IMG/VR virus record: IMGVR_UViG_3300038530_001416
Coordinates: 1 to 40,295 of that record
Origin: a virus
Lineage: Duplodnaviria > Caudoviricetes
Strand: one strand, 5' to 3'
Length of the DNA: 40,295 bases
Each line of letters begins with the position of its first letter. The first letter of the stretch is position 1. Position numbers and translations under genes: made by a program. The notes under the pieces were generated by a model. That model was not told the origin of the DNA. It saw only the letters and a list, made by a program, of their open reading frames with translations, and searched no databases. Shown one piece after another: positions 26,690-36,269 of this stretch.

Positions 26690-26995
26690 TCAAAAATTGG
26701 ACTGGAATTTTTTTGGCACTAGCAAAATTTTTTTTAGTTGTTTTTTACTATTCCCAAGATAAAAATCAAGGCTGTTTATTTCTAGATGCAAGTTTGTTTT
26801 CCTGCTGTTCAGTTGTATCTCAAAGGAAGTATTTGAGGGCGATTTTTTCACCGCATTCTTTTCCGTAGAAACTGACATGTAGAACACGGAAATACTGTCG
26901 GTTTATAGTAGTGTAGATTCTACACCGTCTAAAACAACAAAAAATTTCTTTTTTTAGAAAAGTGAGCGACAACAAAAAAATGAAAAAAAAATTTG
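26690..26995. other. A/T-tract-rich non-coding region at the boundary between the late module and the cassette array
   Basis: Multiple A5-A9/T5-T9 tracts; inverted repeat gtgtagattctacac at 26911-26925. Confidence 0.5.
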
Positions 26996-27027
26996 CATAT
27001 GGTTGTAGATTTTTTTACAATCATATG

Positions 27028-27141
27028 GTAGGAGTGGCGACAGGCTATACACATAATCGAAGAGTCTCACTCTTCATCATCGTAGTAGTAAAGCACTGTT
27101 GTCACCTCCTAACCCCGACAGGTTATACCAACTAGTTGACA
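27028..27141 (+). ncRNA. Structured non-coding element, copy 1
   Basis: Outer stems taggag/ctccta and tggcgacag/ctgttgtca (G-U pairs on the + strand), inner hairpin gaagagt-ctc-actcttc, then aacc-ccgaca-ggtt. Confidence 0.65.
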
Positions 27142-27170
27142 ACCATATGGTAAGAACGGCTTTGCCAGTG

Positions 27171-27189
27171 AAAAAACCCCGAAGGTAGG
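27171..27189 (-). terminator. UUCG hairpin plus U6 tract ending cassette A
   Basis: Minus strand reads ACC-UUCG-GGG-UUUUUU. Confidence 0.6.
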
Positions 27190-27326
27190 AGAAAGGAAGC
27201 GTGTGATAGTCGGGGCGGGGCTTCCTTCCTCCATTCTTTACTTATTAATCAGGCTGAACGCATATTTCGTATTATTCGGCCCATTTTTTCATAATAAGCA
27301 TGGGTTGAGTTGCTTAACATTCATCA

Positions 27327-27590
27327 TCAAAGAACATTATATTCACCTCCGACCACTTTTTCCCTTATATCTTGAATCGAAGGCTCATTCAAGAACTGAA
27401 GCAGATAAAAGTTAGTCGTTTGGCTGAACATGTCCCAATATGGGTTATACAAGGTTATTTCATCGCCTTTTATAGTTGCAACCTTTGAATTATATGAATA
27501 AAAGTGCTTTCCCTCTTCGTCATATACTTCAATTTGGTTCTTTGCGGGGTTTCCCCCCTTAGTTATCATGTGTTGAAACCTTAGTGTCAT
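27327..27590 (-). CDS. Hypothetical early-type protein (cassette A)
   Basis: FYSYNSKVA...S.TT..YL..FL pattern seen in small phage proteins; promoter at fixed spacing. Confidence 0.8.
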   Translation of the reverse strand: MTLRFQHMITKGGNPAKNQIEVYDEEGKHFYSYNSKVATIKGDEITLYNPYWDMFSQTTNFYLLQFLNEPSIQDIREKVVGGEYNVL

Positions 27591-27620
27591 ATCCTTATTC
27601 CCATTTCACAGTTATAGGGA
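27591..27620 (-). promoter_or_regulatory. Leaderless promoter A
   Basis: CCTATAACTGTGAAATG + 11 nt + ATG. Confidence 0.75.
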
Positions 27621-27664
27621 TGTCTGACAAAGTCGCCTACCATATGGTAAGGCACTTTGTTGCT

Positions 27665-27685
27665 CTGACCCCGTAGGGGAGTCAG
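27665..27685 (-). terminator. UACG hairpin ending cassette B
   Basis: Minus strand CUGA(CUC)CCC-UACG-GGGUCAG. Confidence 0.55.
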
Positions 27686-27847
27686 GACAGGGACAGTTGT
27701 TGCATAAGACTTGCATTCATATCCGATTCATTGCGTAGAGTATATTCCGGCTTCATCTACGGCTGATTACGCTGTGCGAAGTAGTTATGTCGAACTAACT
27801 GTTTGTCCATCATCCCCAATTACTCCCTCAAGGGTAGGAGTTTACGT

Positions 27848-28597
27848 TCACTCTTCTTCTGAAGAGGCTTGTCTCTTTGCTTCTCTGAGCATGTCGATTA
27901 CTGCTGGCTTACATTCTGACGAATGATGAGACCGAACATCGAACATACAGGAGATAGTTGGCTCTTCTAAGGTCTTATCGAAGGTTTCCGACTCAAAGAT
28001 GCTCTCAAAGATAGCCTGTATCTTGCCCATCAGTGGTGTAGGCAAATCTACGAGTTTCTCTTGTAGAATAGCATCCTTCTGAACCTTATCTGTATCCCAC
28101 TCAACGGTAAACTTGAGTGTAGAGCGGTAAGAGTAGGCTGTGAAGTCAATCTTCATCCTAACATCTGCTTCACCTTCATCATTGTAGGAGATAATCTGAT
28201 ACTTGTCAGAGTATGACCCTAAATGAAAGTCTGAATCAGTGTAAATGATAGTGCTACCACGCCAATCTGCTTCAACTTCCTTTGTAATGGTTGTAGTTAC
28301 CTTCTCAATAGGCTTAGTCTCAATCATCATTACCTCAAACTGGTCAATTACATCCTGTGCCTTGTATTTGTAGTCAAACGTTAGTTGAACTTCCGTATCA
28401 TCGACAACGAAGTTGACGAGATAAGTATCAGATGAAGTTGTTTCTTCTTTGACACCATATTCCGGTAGTTCTGTATCCCATGAATCCAAGTCTGCTATGT
28501 TGTGTTGGCCTAAAACATGGTGGAGAAGTTGCTTCTCACTTTCACTAAACCCGAAATCATAGTCAATGGAGACTGTTCTTGTGTGGGTATGACTCAT
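27848..28597 (-). CDS. Hypothetical acidic protein (cassette B)
   Basis: 249-aa ORF coupled to the upstream gene. Confidence 0.8.
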   Translation of the reverse strand: MSHTHTRTVSIDYDFGFSESEKQLLHHVLGQHNIADLDSWDTELPEYGVKEETTSSDTYLVNFVVDDTEVQLTFDYKYKAQDVIDQFEVMMIETKPIEKVTTTITKEVEADWRGSTIIYTDSDFHLGSYSDKYQIISYNDEGEADVRMKIDFTAYSYRSTLKFTVEWDTDKVQKDAILQEKLVDLPTPLMGKIQAIFESIFESETFDKTLEEPTISCMFDVRSHHSSECKPAVIDMLREAKRQASSEEE

Positions 28598-28791
28598 TGT
28601 GTGAAACCCCCATCTACGAATATCTCCTTGACTGACTCAAGACATGCCTCAAGTTGTGCAACGACATCTGCTAAGTTGTCATCACGAACTTTGAGGGACT
28701 TGAGAATCAAAACATGGTGTGAACCTTGTTTTGCGTGTCCGACTTCTACTTCATACTGGTATTGCTTGTTTAGTATCGCTTCCGATTCCAT
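28594..28791 (-). CDS. Hypothetical protein (cassette B)
   Basis: Starts at the fixed distance from promoter B. Confidence 0.75.
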   Translation of the reverse strand: MESEAILNKQYQYEVEVGHAKQGSHHVLILKSLKVRDDNLADVVAQLEACLESVKEIFVDGGFTQ

Positions 28792-28820
28792 GTCCTAACC
28801 TTCATTTCACATATATGAGG
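28792..28820 (-). promoter_or_regulatory. Leaderless promoter B
   Basis: CCTCATATATGTGAAATG + 11 nt + ATG. Confidence 0.75.
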
Positions 28821-28880
28821 TTCAGTAGCAAAGCACCTTACCATATGGTAGTAGCGACTTTGTCAGTGGCGACCCCGAAA

Positions 28881-28896
28881 TGACCCCGAAGGGTCA
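28881..28896 (-). terminator. Perfect cUUCGg hairpin ending cassette C
   Basis: Minus strand UGACCC-UUCG-GGGUCA. Confidence 0.65.
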
Positions 28897-28929
28897 AATC
28901 AGGTGTCTGAGGAGGTCAGGAGGTCAGAC

Positions 28930-29439
28930 TTATTCAGACCTCGCAATTTTCACACTGGCGATGTAATTCGACAATGTGTTTTCGTAAAATCCAGCACTTA
29001 GAGCGTGTAGGTTGTCGTTCCAACCAGTGTCCTTGACTGCTGAACCGTCATCGTTGTTTCTTCCGTTGTACTTGGTGAAGAGTGCGTGTGCATCAGGGGC
29101 CATAACCATAGTTAGAGTACCATCCTCATCAACTGAGACCTGAATTGGGTTTGCCTTCGCTTCATCATCAGTCAGAGTGAAGGATTCTCTCTTTCCTTGG
29201 TTAGATACAAACGGGGTTGGTACTCCGTGTATCCTCATCATGCTTGCCATCTTCGCCTTGATGTTCTTCGTTATCGAGTTTTGTCGGGATTTCAATCGGT
29301 CTCCTTCGCTCAGGTAATCCTGAAACTCCAAAACCGAAAACTCTCCGATTACCTCGGCGTTCTTCTCACAGTATTCTACTACTGTGGCCTTATCTTCTTT
29401 CCATGTCATGCTTCCATTACTTTTTGCCATTTTTTTCAC
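28930..29439 (-). CDS. Hypothetical protein (cassette C)
   Basis: 169-aa ORF; likely ATG at 29430. Confidence 0.8.
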   Translation of the reverse strand: MKKMAKSNGSMTWKEDKATVVEYCEKNAEVIGEFSVLEFQDYLSEGDRLKSRQNSITKNIKAKMASMMRIHGVPTPFVSNQGKRESFTLTDDEAKANPIQVSVDEDGTLTMVMAPDAHALFTKYNGRNNDDGSAVKDTGWNDNLHALSAGFYENTLSNYIASVKIARSE

Positions 29440-29469
29440 TTCCTGTTAGTCTGTTTGACCTCCTCAGAC

Positions 29470-29500
29470 GCTCTTACTCGCATTTCACCTATATAGGGGG
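29470..29500 (-). promoter_or_regulatory. Promoter C (leadered transcript)
   Basis: CCCTATATAGGTGAAATG + 11 nt + GTCTGAGG. Confidence 0.7.
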
Positions 29501-29527
29501 TTTGCTGACAAAGTCGCTTACCATATG

Positions 29528-29643
29528 GTAGGAGAGTGACGACAAGTTACACGCATAAAAAGAGTAATCTCAATTACTCATCATCGTCAAAGAACACTTG
29601 CGTCACCTCCTAACCCCGACAGGTTGCACCAATTTTATTGACA
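29528..29643 (+). ncRNA. Structured non-coding element, copy 2
   Basis: Stems taggag/ctccta, gtgacg/cgtcac and caagt/acttg; inner hairpin gagtaat-ctca-attactc; then aaccccgacaggtt. Confidence 0.65.
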
Positions 29644-29676
29644 ACCATATGGTATGGTAATGCTTTGCTATTAGCA

Positions 29677-29690
29677 CACCCCGAAGGGTG
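29677..29690 (-). terminator. Perfect cUUCGg hairpin ending cassette D
   Basis: Minus strand CACCC-UUCG-GGGUG, 4 nt after the stop codon. Confidence 0.65.
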
Positions 29691-29694
29691 GCAT

Positions 29695-29898
29695 TTAGTC
29701 CCAAAGCATGTCTATGAACTTCAACTCATAGGAACGATAGCCTTCTTTGTTGCAATTGTTACATACGATTCTGAAATCAACGTAGTCTTCATTGAAGTCC
29801 TCAATCTTTACAATTGACCATTCCTCGCAATCACATTCAGGCTCATACTCTAACTCCGGTTGAGGTAGGGCTACCATGTGATTCTCTATATCTCTCAT
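29695..29898 (-). CDS. Small zinc-binding protein (cassette D)
   Basis: CDC...CNNC. Confidence 0.7.
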   Translation of the reverse strand: MRDIENHMVALPQPELEYEPECDCEEWSIVKIEDFNEDYVDFRIVCNNCNKEGYRSYELKFIDMLWD

Positions 29899-30122
29899 TG
29901 CATAGCCCTCCTCAATCTCTCAGGTAGAACAACATCATTCTGACACTTATCACAACATCTGCCAACTACAACTGGTTCTGCATTATGACCATTCGCCCAG
30001 TAGGGAGTTCCATCTTCCTTGTAGTGAATGTCAATGGGTTCACCACAAATATCACATGTCTGAGTCTCAATCTTCAAGGTTCTCACCATTCCATCCACAT
30101 TCTTCACACCATGCATCTGCAA
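29895..30122 (-). CDS. Zinc-finger protein (cassette D); true start probably further downstream
   Basis: CDICG...GHNAEPV..GRCCDKC...V.P.R motif of small phage zinc proteins. Confidence 0.7.
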   Translation of the reverse strand: MQMHGVKNVDGMVRTLKIETQTCDICGEPIDIHYKEDGTPYWANGHNAEPVVVGRCCDKCQNDVVLPERLRRAMQ

Positions 30123-30192
30123 GCACTCCTATGTATGCACCTGTGATTGTCAGTCTCTTTTCACATCCTTCACAATTCATTTCGTATTCCAT
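30067..30192 (-). CDS. 41-aa zinc-ribbon peptide (not in the ORF track)
   Basis: MEYEMNCEGCEKRLTITGAYIGVLADAWCEECGWNGENLED; GAGGAGG RBS. Confidence 0.65.
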   Translation of the reverse strand: MEYEMNCEGCEKRLTITGAYIGVLADAWCEECGWNGENLED

Positions 30193-30326
30193 TATTCTTC
30201 CTCCTCTTTTCTCAGTTCAGGGTGGTAGGAATATGCGTAAGCCCTCAGCAATTCAAGGTCAGCATGAGGACTCACGATGGCCTTACAAAGAACGAATAAC
30301 TCATTCTCATGATTGCGCTTAGTCAT
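30192..30326 (-). CDS. 44-aa hypothetical peptide (not in the ORF track)
   Basis: MTKRNHENELFVLCK...KEEEE; abuts both neighbours. Confidence 0.6.
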   Translation of the reverse strand: MTKRNHENELFVLCKAIVSPHADLELLRAYAYSYHPELRKEEEE

Positions 30327-30455
30327 TCACTCTTCCTCCATTTCTGATAACCATTCATCAACATCCTGTGCAATGTGATTAGGTATATCCACCATTATGT
30401 ATTCCTTATCGTTTTCATCCCACACTGTCAATCTCCACGCTATTACTTTCTTCAT
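30327..30455 (-). CDS. 42-aa hypothetical peptide (not in the ORF track)
   Basis: MKKVIAWRLTVWDENDKEY...MEEE; TAATG coupling. Confidence 0.6.
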   Translation of the reverse strand: MKKVIAWRLTVWDENDKEYIMVDIPNHIAQDVDEWLSEMEEE

Positions 30456-30616
30456 TATTCTTCCTCCTCTATTGACATATACAAATCCCAAAATTGCATC
30501 CAACCGATACCCATCATTTCTTCTAAGCGTTCATCAGGAGTATTCATCCATTCGCTCAAATTTCTTATTACCTGCTTCATTATTGAAATTGCTACTTCTT
30601 CACTATATTTACTCAT
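30455..30616 (-). CDS. 53-aa hypothetical peptide (not in the ORF track)
   Basis: MSKYSEEVAISIMKQV...IEEEE; ATGA overlap; GAGGTGA RBS. Confidence 0.6.
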   Translation of the reverse strand: MSKYSEEVAISIMKQVIRNLSEWMNTPDERLEEMMGIGWMQFWDLYMSIEEEE

Positions 30617-31011
30617 TCTTCTTCACCTCTTTTTTGCATCTTTCTCTCAAACGCATTGAACTCCATCTCCTGAAGTCTGACTAACCAGTTCTTGTATTCC
30701 GTGTTAAACTTCCTCTTGTCGTATGTCGTAACGTTACATGACCAATCAGCATCTCTCAATCTCTCGCAGAACTCAAGAGTCATGGTGCGGTAGAACATTC
30801 CCATATCGTATATTGGGTTGGCGAAGTTGCAGAGTAGCATTCTACGCCTGAACTCTTCAGGAGTGATTTTCACTCCCCCATATCTAACACTCATACTTCC
30901 AACTCCTGCATTCTGTGCTAACAGACCAAATCCTAATCCATTAACCAAGTTAATCTCAGTTTCATGGAAGCCTTTCTCTATTCCGTTTACTATTCCTACT
31001 ATTAGTGGCAT
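30613..31011 (-). CDS. Hypothetical protein, first gene of cassette D
   Basis: Starts at the fixed distance from promoter D. Confidence 0.8.
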   Translation of the reverse strand: MPLIVGIVNGIEKGFHETEINLVNGLGFGLLAQNAGVGSMSVRYGGVKITPEEFRRRMLLCNFANPIYDMGMFYRTMTLEFCERLRDADWSCNVTTYDKRKFNTEYKNWLVRLQEMEFNAFERKMQKRGEEE

Positions 31012-31040
31012 ACCCCTATTTCCATTTCACCCCTATGAGG
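31012..31040 (-). promoter_or_regulatory. Leaderless promoter D
   Basis: CCTCATAGGGGTGAAATG + 11 nt + ATG. Confidence 0.7.
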
Positions 31041-31117
31041 TTGGATAGCAAAGCATCCTACCATATGGTAAAAGGTTTGGAACGGAAGTTTCCTGAGCCG
31101 ACACTAGGGGTGGTCAG

Positions 31118-31148
31118 CCCCTTATATATGTGAAACGGAATAAGGGGT
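31118..31148 (+). promoter_or_regulatory. Divergent copy of the same promoter with no ORF behind it
   Basis: CCTTATATATGTGAAACG-GAATAAGGGGT-ATT. Confidence 0.65.
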
Positions 31149-31239
31149 ATTCCGAGAATCAGTTGCGTATTCAGGGTTTGAGTCCTTTTTGCACAACTGT
31201 TTCCTAGACTACTTTTAACAAAACGGTTTGATTTGGTAG

Positions 31240-31620
31240 TAATTTGTATCTACCTCAATATGATATCGTTTTGATTATGACAAAAGGTGTCTCCTATATG
31301 TATGACATATATCATATATGTATATACATATGACATGTGATATTTTTCATATGTAATATCATAGTTGTTCACCTTTTTCGGATTGTTTTGGTATTTTTCA
31401 CTATTTTTCAGTCAGGGTGAAAAATCAAAAAGTGGTCTAAAGGGTGTAGAATCATTGATTTTAATGAATATTTTAATATTTCATATATTTCACTATCTTA
31501 TACTACTACTATATGTCATCATACCTACTACTACCCCTTCTCTCAGAGAGGGGTGAAAAATATGAAAAATTGAAAAATAAAACAAAAACGCTTCACTGCG
31601 CTAATATTCAATTTTACATG
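31240..31620. other. AT-rich region at the strand switch; candidate replication origin or genome end
   Basis: Very low GC; CATAT/ATATG-rich palindromic stretch at 31295-31345; repeated GGTGAAAAAT / TTTTTCAC. Confidence 0.45.
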
Positions 31621-31634
31621 ATGGTGAAATATTA

Positions 31635-32039: not shown

Positions 32040-32830
32040 CACACTCACATATGACTTAGGGAGTCTTTACCGCTCAGGAGTAGGCAGAATTTAGTTTCCC
32101 CTCCTTTGAACGGTCATGGTTTAGCGGCCATGACGGTGAGAGTTTGTAAAGTCAAGTCGTGGGACAGAGGGTTTAGTAATAATAAGGATTGAAGATATAG
32201 GAGCAGACTGGCTATGGTTCACTGCACTCATGACTCAGGCAATGCGGGATTACGCATTTAAGTCCTACATGGGAAGTGGTGTGTAAAATCCATAACAAAC
32301 TTGTTCGCACTTACAAGGAACGTGAGTAGCGGCTTCCCGGTATAAAATATGAAGCAGGATAACAAGGGTCGTAAGTAACATCGAGGCAACTTTCCCGGTT
32401 GCAGTTCCCTACTCCGAATGATGGGCATAGCACCTATCCTTTCCCTCATCAACTCAACAGCAGGTTTACTGTGGTAAAAATGCAGAATCAATAACAGTAG
32501 TGTTAACGTTGTATGCCAACAACTCACTTCAACATTGCATTCTCCTGCTATCCTACTCGCAAGAGCAAGGTGTTCGATTGCGTAAGTCCTGACGAGGCAA
32601 TATGAACTTAAAGAAGACGAAACCAGTTGCGGTGCGAAGTCTTCGCCTTGCTATCCAACTCACTTGTAGTAATGACTACAAACCTACCCCGACAGGGTTT
32701 GAGTAGAGTTTTGTCGTGAAATAAAAAAGGTCGTGCGTAGCATATTGTTTGGATAACAAACCATACTGGGTTTTAGTTTGTGTTCTCCTAGCGACAGAGA
32801 CTGTGGTGGTCTCGACCTTTCTCTACTATT
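32040..32830 (+). ncRNA. Large hairpin-dense non-coding region, candidate structured RNA(s)
   Basis: No credible ORF across ~830 nt; more than ten stems, several with + strand G-U pairs. Confidence 0.55.
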
Positions 32831-35025: not shown

Positions 35026-35137
35026 AGAAGTTGGCCGATGTGCTAACTGTAACAAGATGGGAGTCTTGTGGAAGTCTTACACTGGTAAGGGAATCTTCTG
35101 CAAGGCTTGTAGTAAGAAAACGTATGTAGGTGAATAA
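35018..35137 (+). CDS. 39-aa zinc-finger peptide (not in the ORF track)
   Basis: MSKEVGRCANCNKMGVLWKSYTGKGIFCKACSKKTYVGE. Confidence 0.6.
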   Translation: MSKEVGRCANCNKMGVLWKSYTGKGIFCKACSKKTYVGE

Positions 35138-36269
35138 GAATATGAATGATGATGTAGAATATGTAATGAAGAATGCTAAGAGAACTCTTGGTGAAGGAAG
35201 GTGGGATAAAATCCTGAAGAGGGAGATGGTTGCACTTTCAGTCGCTGATAACTATGATGAGGCAAAGTATGAGTGGAAGGCAACAGGAGAAGTTTGGTGG
35301 CAGGGTATTGGAACTCCAAGACCTGCTTGGGCTTCAGAGCATCCCAATAAGTGCCTTTGCTCTCACTCGATTGTCTATCACTTTGAGATAGAGAACACAG
35401 AGACAGGACACAGGGATTGTGTTGGTTCAGACCACATCAATTCCTACATGGTTCTTCGTGCTATCAAGGATGAGATGGGCATTGATGAGAATGCTATCAC
35501 TGAAGAGATGATTGAGGAATGGATTAAGACTAAGGTTAGTTCCATGATGGCAACCGCTTGGTGGAACGAGAATGGTGAAGAGTTTGAAGAGATGTTCAAT
35601 GAAATCAAGGAACTTGACCTTAGAATCAACGTGCATTATACTGGAAAGTATGTGTATGATTCCAAGTTAGGTGTGAGTGTGCCTGAGACCAAGATTCGTA
35701 AGAAAGGCTCAGGTATGTTTGGTGATGAGGACTACAAGATGAGTTCTATCGTTTGGCGATGGAATCATCCTGATAATCCAAAGGCTCAGATACACACAAA
35801 GGGATATCCTAATGAGAAACTCATGATGGATTTGACTGATTTCTCTGTCAAGATAAACCGACACAAGGCTAAAGTCCTAGAAGAAGACAAGATAATTGAG
35901 GATAAAGTCAAGAGAAAACTCGCATGGGAAGAGCAACAGGAAATCAGGAAGGCTGTTTATGAGGAGCAAAGACAAGCAGAACTGAAGGATGGTTGTGATT
36001 ATTACGACATACCTCTGTTCAATAAGGAAATGGCTTCTAATGAATGGGAGAGCCGATTCCTGTTTGATATGGAAGTGCGTGTTCGTGGCCGAAAAGAACT
36101 AACAGAGAGACAATTAGAGAGTTTGATGAAGATAATCCATCGCTATAATGATAAGCCAACTGAACGTCAGGTGAATTACCTGCGGGCTTTGGGCTACGAT
36201 GGAGAAATTGAATCTTTAACGAGAGGAAAAGTATCGAAGTTGATAGACGAATTAAAGGAGGAAAAATAA
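35130..36269 (+). CDS. Hypothetical protein with zinc motif and a short C-terminal helical domain
   Basis: CLCSH.I...VGSDHI; C-terminal PTERQVNYLRALG...LTRGKVSKLID. Confidence 0.8.
   Translation: MNKNMNDDVEYVMKNAKRTLGEGRWDKILKREMVALSVADNYDEAKYEWKATGEVWWQGIGTPRPAWASEHPNKCLCSHSIVYHFEIENTETGHRDCVGSDHINSYMVLRAIKDEMGIDENAITEEMIEEWIKTKVSSMMATAWWNENGEEFEEMFNEIKELDLRINVHYTGKYVYDSKLGVSVPETKIRKKGSGMFGDEDYKMSSIVWRWNHPDNPKAQIHTKGYPNEKLMMDLTDFSVKINRHKAKVLEEDKIIEDKVKRKLAWEEQQEIRKAVYEEQRQAELKDGCDYYDIPLFNKEMASNEWESRFLFDMEVRVRGRKELTERQLESLMKIIHRYNDKPTERQVNYLRALGYDGEIESLTRGKVSKLIDELKEEK

Follow-up and report, generated by a model that had tools for sequence, protein, structure and literature searches.

An array of short gene units, each bounded by palindromes centred on CATATG, lies at the divergence point of the structural and replication gene blocks in the viral record IMGVR_UViG_3300038530_001416, whose whole length of 40,295 bases is the window analysed here. 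Eight such palindromes had been proposed in an earlier reading of the window (the original prediction), and they were borne out: their CATATG hexamers start at 26996, 27022, 27144, 27641, 28842, 29522, 29646 and 31062, seven of the sites fit TACCATATGGTA with no more than two mismatches, and the eighth, at 26994, is the degenerate TGCATATGGT. Over the whole window the pattern has 10 matches against 1.13 expected, a number that none of 100 shuffles attained. We discarded a simple 6-bp restriction site as an explanation because CATATG is present nine more times in the window outside the array. The sites delimit four long units (A to D), two small units and one empty unit (Table 1). Promoter boxes of the type GTGAAATG and UNCG-type hairpins were found in all four long units, as predicted; the ATG lies exactly 11 nt past the box in units A, B and D, and the promoter blocks that the units have in common span 70 nt and are 61-76% alike. 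The empty unit, anticipated as an inverted repeat alone, folds to a hairpin (z -6.4) and has similar counterparts in relatives. Two of the four internal junctions that we folded did not form a significant hairpin.

The two small units had been taken for structured non-coding elements, a description that no longer holds: both contain a strong Shine-Dalgarno site and a micro-open reading frame (micro-ORF) of a conserved class on the minus strand (MLYYYDDEE and MFFDDDE). Micro-ORFs of this M-aromatic-acidic class are present in 20 of the 165 distinct small units compared with 0.16 in shuffles, and a ribosome site precedes 19 of those 20. Their sequences suggest that they are translated to acidic peptides. 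C/D-box RNA was considered as the identity of the small units and rejected, since the window units have no D box and the micro-ORF frame is retained with synonymous changes.

The capsid protein of the window is nearest to that of the haloviruses HVTV-1 and HCTV, and the gene content includes a prohead protease, a portal, a terminase and a class II ribonucleotide reductase, with an ATP-dependent ligase sitting among the structural genes. The closest near-complete relative has both a second ligase and a family B polymerase that is split; GroEL is encoded by another relative. Extracts of PMC5434244 give a structural-module ligase, ribonucleotide reductase, a split DNA polymerase, GroEL and a halovirus-like capsid as marks of the group B magroviruses; a second ATP-dependent ligase in the structural module, the ribonucleotide reductase and, in a subset, the split polB were all found here. 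Judged by these gene marks, the window virus is a group B magrovirus, and the same marks point to a marine group II archaeon as its host, in line with the predicted archaeal virus. The same paper ranks magrovirus hosts among the most abundant surface-ocean archaea and describes neither a magrovirus nor its host as cultured.

An initial search pattern tied to the GTGAAATG box had no match in viral contigs, and this box is not general. A pattern made of the 10-bp core of the palindrome plus its flanking boxes (described below) retrieved at least 181 viral and at least 199 metagenome stretches. For an unbiased sample we anchored on the neighbouring 379-aa gene (41-85% identity), which gave 80 loci. 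Leaving out of the count the 35 with less than 8 kb upstream, the array was at the same place in 45 of 45 loci with at least 8 kb upstream, a few of them being one virus twice. Of 24 whole records, 23 contain the exact 10-mer, which is clustered wherever positions are listed, and the single record without it ends 3.3 kb from the anchor gene. A search of a prokaryote genome collection for the doubly boxed site returned 39 stretches, with 37 isolated sites and one array-bearing contig; none of the 39 was titled as a marine archaeon, the search covering the doubly boxed site only. A widely spaced chance cluster (L058) and the 37 single-site bacterial loci were left out before the counts. The array units fall into 391 DNA families for 467 units, and the protein family of unit C (P0) is found in 47 of 49 arrays, in both orientations.

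Some further observations concern the content of these arrays. One contig of 14.8 kb (L233-L234), assigned to a bacterial genome bin, carries a full array and is probably mis-binned magrovirus DNA. Three relatives (L195:2706-3164, L199:16085-16618 and L204:14495-14962) encode, immediately beyond the replication-side end of the array, a protein that by eye resembles the unit-C family and is perhaps a fixed paralogue. Arrays of up to 23-24 cores were seen in L072, L055, L070, L465, L474, L477 and L483; they consist mostly of box-less units of 110-220 nt without a micro-ORF, several with common short motifs, which are possibly small-RNA cassettes.

Long units follow a single order: a half-core, a spacer of 3-10 nt, R-CTTTG, a further 4-12 nt, ACC[CT] and then a side-specific element, mirrored at the other end. 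The element after ACC[CT] is a TATA-like run on the promoter side and a GC hairpin on the terminator side. Both inner boxes are present in 169 of 194 long units, the CTTTG boxes point inward, and a unit takes its spacers and boxes along, the half-core outside them belonging to the neighbour. Only 2 of 23 left ends and 6 of 48 right ends of arrays have an outer box, and because boxes are absent outward at most terminal cores we assign them to the units. Many left array ends carry an A-tract and a degenerate core (A-tract plus GCCATATGGT in many relatives, a similar end in the window), which together with the general lack of outward boxes at the ends suggests that one end of the array is a fixed platform. 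Among 125 doubly boxed sites collected at a tolerance of three mismatches, 124 retain CATATG unchanged, and the exception lies outside the array.

Next, we mapped the exchange point on 68 unit ends that have unrelated neighbours. Identity is 0.94 at position +1, inside the 10-bp core, compared with 0.44 at -1 and 0.31 at -2 outside it. Core positions 1-2 on the neighbour side differ in 10 of the 68 ends and positions 9-10 in none (counted by eye), which places the exchange in CATATG. Between loci L286 and L268, whose flanks are collinear, one 604-nt unit bounded by two cores is inverted, with identity at 584 positions; its terminal inverted repeat, only about 10-12 bp long, would be too short to mislead the assembler. 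Of 24 array pairs with at least two common units, 17 show the same order, 6 are reordered and 1 has an inversion; L028 and L029, for instance, have collinear flanks and permuted units whose ends fall at cores. In the genome frame 148 units are on the minus and 78 on the plus strand, and 8 of 134 homologous unit pairs are opposite. Alignment ends lie within 25 nt of a core in 31 of 71 cases against 12% expected. These counts support the prediction that whole units are gained, lost, reordered and inverted at the palindrome; the contrary picture of fixed order, unrelated breakpoints and no covariation of the unit ends did not emerge. The arrays are clade-wide in magroviruses and are a real cassette system with a precise exchange site.

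The same sites might have no part in movement and be plain operators, bound by a transcription factor upstream of early promoters. This reading draws on the distance between core and promoter box, which in all four window promoters is 28-30 nt counted from the 12-mer (29-31 nt in the original prediction), and on a palindrome-binding fold, apparently without catalytic activity, that is conserved in 22 of 22 near-complete relatives (see below). However, the core is retained where there is no promoter to regulate: all four convergent, promoter-free junctions have a perfect core and both boxes, as do 14 of 14 divergent ones, and the core is perfect at 55 of 56 tandem junctions. That the boxes point inward and that the core is kept at promoter-free junctions make a plain operator unlikely. 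Breakpoints and one inversion map inside the core, the promoter beyond the array lacks a core at such a spacing, and core-to-box spacing varies widely among relatives. As the sole role of the core, the operator is largely refuted, and we give it a very small probability.

RNA contigs of unit C were present in four of four RNA runs (two studies), all of them within 28902-29445 and so inside the arms, the repeats at the unit ends; unit A had RNA contigs inside it in two of the four runs. Among the RNA contigs listed none crosses a core, a weak indication given that only contigs were compared. The confinement of unit C RNA agrees, loosely, with the proposal that any pairing of the arms acts at the DNA level. 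Sigma-70-like sites numbered 13 against 13.0 expected, with none at the four unit promoters.

The perfect arm matches within unit C (14 bp) and unit D (12 bp) were reproduced on recomputation. The arms of A and of B, described earlier as near matches, agree with their own partner only over the common 5-bp box, less than the 7 bp that they share with other units. Nor are the arms private to a unit: the terminator-side arm of C matches the promoter-side arm of A over 13 bp, that of D matches the promoter-side arm of B over 10 bp, and the arms form two types, one common to A and C and one to B and D. Across arrays, own-arm pairing has a mean of -10.1 kcal/mol compared with -8.8 and -8.5 kcal/mol for the alternatives, and the own partner is the best in 35 of 182 cases (17.7 expected). 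Around the box, within-array permutations give an arm identity of 516 +/- 17 where 624 is observed, and within families the corresponding figures are 398 +/- 15 and 508; each control removes just one of genome bias and family bias. Close homologue pairs (85 usable of 95) yielded 8 compensatory changes among 44 double changes, versus 101 one-sided changes, and we read the arm match as the decaying footprint of ends meeting. The predicted covariation of the arms is thus significant in the permutations but weak in the compensatory changes, which do not support fold-back pairing of private arms as an obligatory step. We regard the matching of arms as a modest tendency and not as a private key that the units need.

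Taken together, we favour, at a probability of roughly 0.58, the reading that whole units change partners, order and orientation through exchange inside the invariant CATATG palindrome, a reaction that a dedicated cut-and-rejoin enzyme likely carries out, acting rarely and presumably through an excised intermediate. Such an enzyme would recognise the unit ends (half-core plus box) and make a symmetric staggered cut within CATATG, so that any end could join any end in either orientation. Inversion would take place between the two cores of a unit, and reordering by excision or reinsertion. The partial match of the arms would be the footprint of ends brought together, by fold-back or at a circular junction, and then occasionally copied.

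Several results weigh against this reading. The data rows are not independent, L028 being in five of the six reordered pairs, and the four convergent junctions amount to about three independent events. Spacer variation of 3-10 nt poorly suits a rigid dimeric recombinase. Alignment ends lie away from cores in 40 of 71 cases, and a close strain has a different 503-nt interior between the arms of unit C; exchange inside units therefore also occurs. The self-joined unit (circle) that the original prediction proposed to look for was not found among the loci compared, and no core joint was present among the joints listed for four DNA runs, in assembled contigs only, which means that events are rare or invisible in contigs. 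The window unit order is kept in close strains, namely L304 (about 95%) and the four DNA runs. Two candidates for such events were dismissed: a joint between 29535 and 27059 (X5) is produced by two similar small units, and L300 carries an internal 140-nt duplication and is not a circle. The duplicated junction of L300 (1-140 and 1596-1735) has a left side that resembles a tRNA 3' half uncalled by ARAGORN.

The enzyme searches count on the same side, none of the tyrosine or serine recombinases or HUH nucleases that the original prediction proposed to look for passing the cut-off. For PF00589 (tyrosine recombinase), sought in viral records only, there was no match in one set of 5 or in another of 24; of the 24, 22 are at least 90% complete, and 14 of 14 controls were positive. 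In the set of five near-complete records, PF16684 (telomere resolvase) gave no match at E up to 10, PF00239 (serine recombinase) gave none, and PF01797 (Y1) gave one sub-threshold match. If a dedicated enzyme acts here, it likely resembles no recombinase family searched for.

Single LAGLIDADG domains bind palindromes as dimers, and this property makes a 131-aa single-domain protein of the LAGLIDADG fold (E 2.7e-16 to I-PnoMI) a candidate reader of the core. It is encoded in 22 of 22 near-complete records, is absent from the window, and has a hydrophobic residue aligned with the catalytic acid position. Lacking that acid, it may be the best-placed candidate for a core-binder. Magrovirus papers, PMC5434244 among them, already list a LAGLIDADG protein of these viruses as a homing-endonuclease homologue. 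An ERCC4/Hef nuclease, a Cas4-like exonuclease and two ATP-dependent ligases are conserved in the four genomes read. The unit C protein is not supported as a recombinase, with no invariant residue among 67 sequences and no Pfam or PDB match; its predicted model has only generic three-helix-bundle fold matches (best Z 7.9). For the conserved 379-aa neighbour (35130-36269), neither a family nor a PDB nor a fold match was found (best Z 4.2; the model was built from 48 sequences, with 18 rows of the first list dropped), and the conserved 413-aa and 445-aa proteins have no useful PDB sequence match.

A more specific and tentative proposal is that magroviruses run an equivalent of the integron with undescribed recombinase chemistry, in which the enzyme would be a viral protein without a recognised recombinase fold. 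A domesticated LAGLIDADG dimer and a viral ligase would perhaps help to cut the 6-bp palindrome, and the enzyme would read the flexibly spaced CTTTG boxes on folded-back unit ends, capturing, inverting and reordering protein genes and tiny peptide or RNA genes.

A related chemistry is that of the Borrelia telomere resolvase ResT, which caps hairpins by a 6-nt staggered cut and can fuse them in the reverse reaction. Applied here, a cut at CATATG would cap the units and the reverse reaction would join them again end to end, which suits the self-complementary 6-bp exchange zone and the any-to-any joining in both orientations. Given that PF16684 is missing from all five near-complete records and that 0 of 708 sites have the symmetry beyond 4 bp past the core that replicated hairpin ends should show, although assembly may purge such junctions, we consider hairpin resolution highly improbable. 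Telomere resolvases (ResT/TelK) and Xer/pdif modules resemble the array in that binding boxes flank a central exchange zone of 6 bp and short sites delimit the modules; unlike them, the viruses have neither PF16684 nor PF00589 in the records searched, and the box spacing is variable where theirs is fixed.

The main rival to a dedicated enzyme is general recombination, with the array as a by-product that resembles the promoter early stem-loops (PeSLs) of T4-type phages (extracts of PMC2839356 and PMC4122927), a PeSL-like motif being also described for halovirus HGTV-1 (PMC3950731). Core and boxes would then be kept for regulation or DNA structure, and general machinery would join units at the one micro-homology that they have in common, the 10-bp core. 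The nuclease, exonuclease and two ligases named above, with template switching at fold-backs, could supply that machinery; recombinase was not found in the viral records searched, and exchange inside units occurs. Moreover, since the variable spacers break homology on both sides, crossovers of general recombination would seem to map to the core anyway. The excerpt of PMC2839356 leaves the same question open for PeSLs. Yet ten bases are very short for homologous exchange, and the longer promoter blocks shared by the units should then attract crossovers. Neither the invariant hexamer at promoter-free junctions nor the boxes facing only inward are explained. We judge this by-product unlikely, and a dedicated enzyme most likely.

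In PeSLs and magrovirus arrays alike, accessory early genes that bring their own promoter and a stem-loop terminator are shuffled within a variable region, the virus is lytic and tailed, and no recombinase is named; a PeSL-type unit (ACCY-TATA on the promoter side, an ACCC hairpin on the terminator side) between accessory early genes is present. The magrovirus arrays differ in that promoters have no sigma-70-like -35/-10, exchange is at one invariant 6-bp palindrome, units are mirror-ended and inversion occurs. PeSL crossovers were mapped at differing places between the -10 box, the Shine-Dalgarno and the ATG of long direct repeats, and PeSL mini-circles were shown by PCR (both in extracts of PMC2839356). 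Among the assembled contigs of the magrovirus arrays no mini-circle was seen.

The comparison with integrons made in the original prediction serves as a working analogy. Integrons consist of IntI, attI and attC cassettes, and phage-borne ones are on record (PMC8946536 and PMC9892861). Like integrons, the arrays hold diverse short gene units at one fixed locus that are reordered as whole pieces at a short conserved crossover; unit ends tend to match, and one array end resembles a fixed platform site. Unlike integrons, they have no IntI or other tyrosine recombinase found in viral records, the exchange point is in CATATG and not in an attC R box, and the units carry their own promoter and terminator, with a promoter box in all four long window units; integron cassettes mostly lack promoters, point one way and are driven from Pc. 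Since the array site is symmetric both orientations occur, whereas the strand selectivity of attC fixes orientation. Of the attC motifs RYYYAAC and GTTRRRY, the first was not found within 70-80 nt of any of the eight cores and the second turned up once, as a stray. The array works like an integron or a PeSL system and departs from both in their defining features. The magrovirus papers searched by term do not mention palindromes, and 'cassette' is absent from those searched for it; nor was such an array described in the literature retrieved for magrovirus with integron, core with archaeal virus and related terms, subscription papers and supplements lying outside both searches.

Table 1. Coordinates of the array features and associated elements; positions refer to the window unless a locus is named.
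Feature	Position	Strand	Remarks
Left terminal core, degenerate, after A/T tract	26994..27003		likely fixed platform end of the array
Empty unit: two cores around a short inverted repeat	27004..27019		similar ones in relatives
Core 2	27020..27029		pattern match
Small structured unit	27030..27141	-	Shine-Dalgarno site and micro-ORF MLYYYDDEE (27067-27096); no CTTTG boxes
Core 3	27142..27151		pattern match
Unit A	27152..27638	-	box arm, hairpin, 87-aa ORF 27327-27590, promoter box 27602-27609, box arm
Core 4	27639..27648		pattern match
Unit B, family P1	27649..28839	-	ORFs 28594-28791 and 27848-28597, hairpin 27668-27679, promoter box 28803-28810
Core 5	28840..28849		pattern match
Unit C, family P0	28850..29519	-	166-aa ORF 28930-29430, hairpin 28883-28894, promoter box 29481-29488, 14-bp matched arms
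Core 6	29520..29529		pattern match
Small structured unit	29530..29643	-	Shine-Dalgarno site and micro-ORF MFFDDDE (29574-29597)
Core 7	29644..29653		pattern match
Unit D	29654..31059	-	small-ORF operon (30613-31011 to 29695-29898), hairpin 29678-29689, promoter box 31023-31030, 12-bp matched arms
Right terminal core	31060..31069		no outward box
Divergent promoter of the same type, outside the array	31122..31137	+	TATA-like run and GTGAAACG; toward replication-side genes
LAGLIDADG-fold protein	L189:12719-13114 (G001)		directly after the replication-module ligase

The interior of unit D is not alike between close strains. The array has AT-rich flanks with A-tract repeats (26690-26995 and 31200-31630), an imperfect inverted pair of 21 nt spans it (26916-26936 and 31433-31453), and an AT-alternating tract lies at 31296-31360; the flanks are possibly an origin or packaging region. 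Further along, the segment 32053-32414, without a long ORF, gave the deepest RNA contigs in three of four RNA runs (depth up to about 200). Its part 32220-32298 varies between strains; the whole region has no Rfam or tRNA match and is likely an undescribed viral non-coding RNA. Across the window, the Rfam scan returned only three chance-level matches and ARAGORN no tRNA. Many arrays have, 1-2 kb past their replication-side end, a tRNA-Leu(TAA) that is often accompanied by Arg, Lys or Met tRNAs (for example L028:9118 and L029:8723), and the tRNA genes from 60 array loci are all outside the core ranges where coordinates were compared.

Finally, as most units have their own promoter and terminator, position in the array would matter little for expression, and the array may serve a slow turnover of early host-interaction genes and not phase variation. 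In every relative examined at the locus it marks the fast-turnover genes and so provides a ready list of host-interaction candidates, which include one near-universal expressed protein and a class of acidic peptides of 6-9 residues. It also offers a sharp test of the question left open for PeSLs in 2010, whether a dedicated enzyme or general recombination is at work. A recombinase with a symmetric 6-bp exchange zone and flexible end spacing would represent a new class of enzyme, one that might be used as a tool for assembly.

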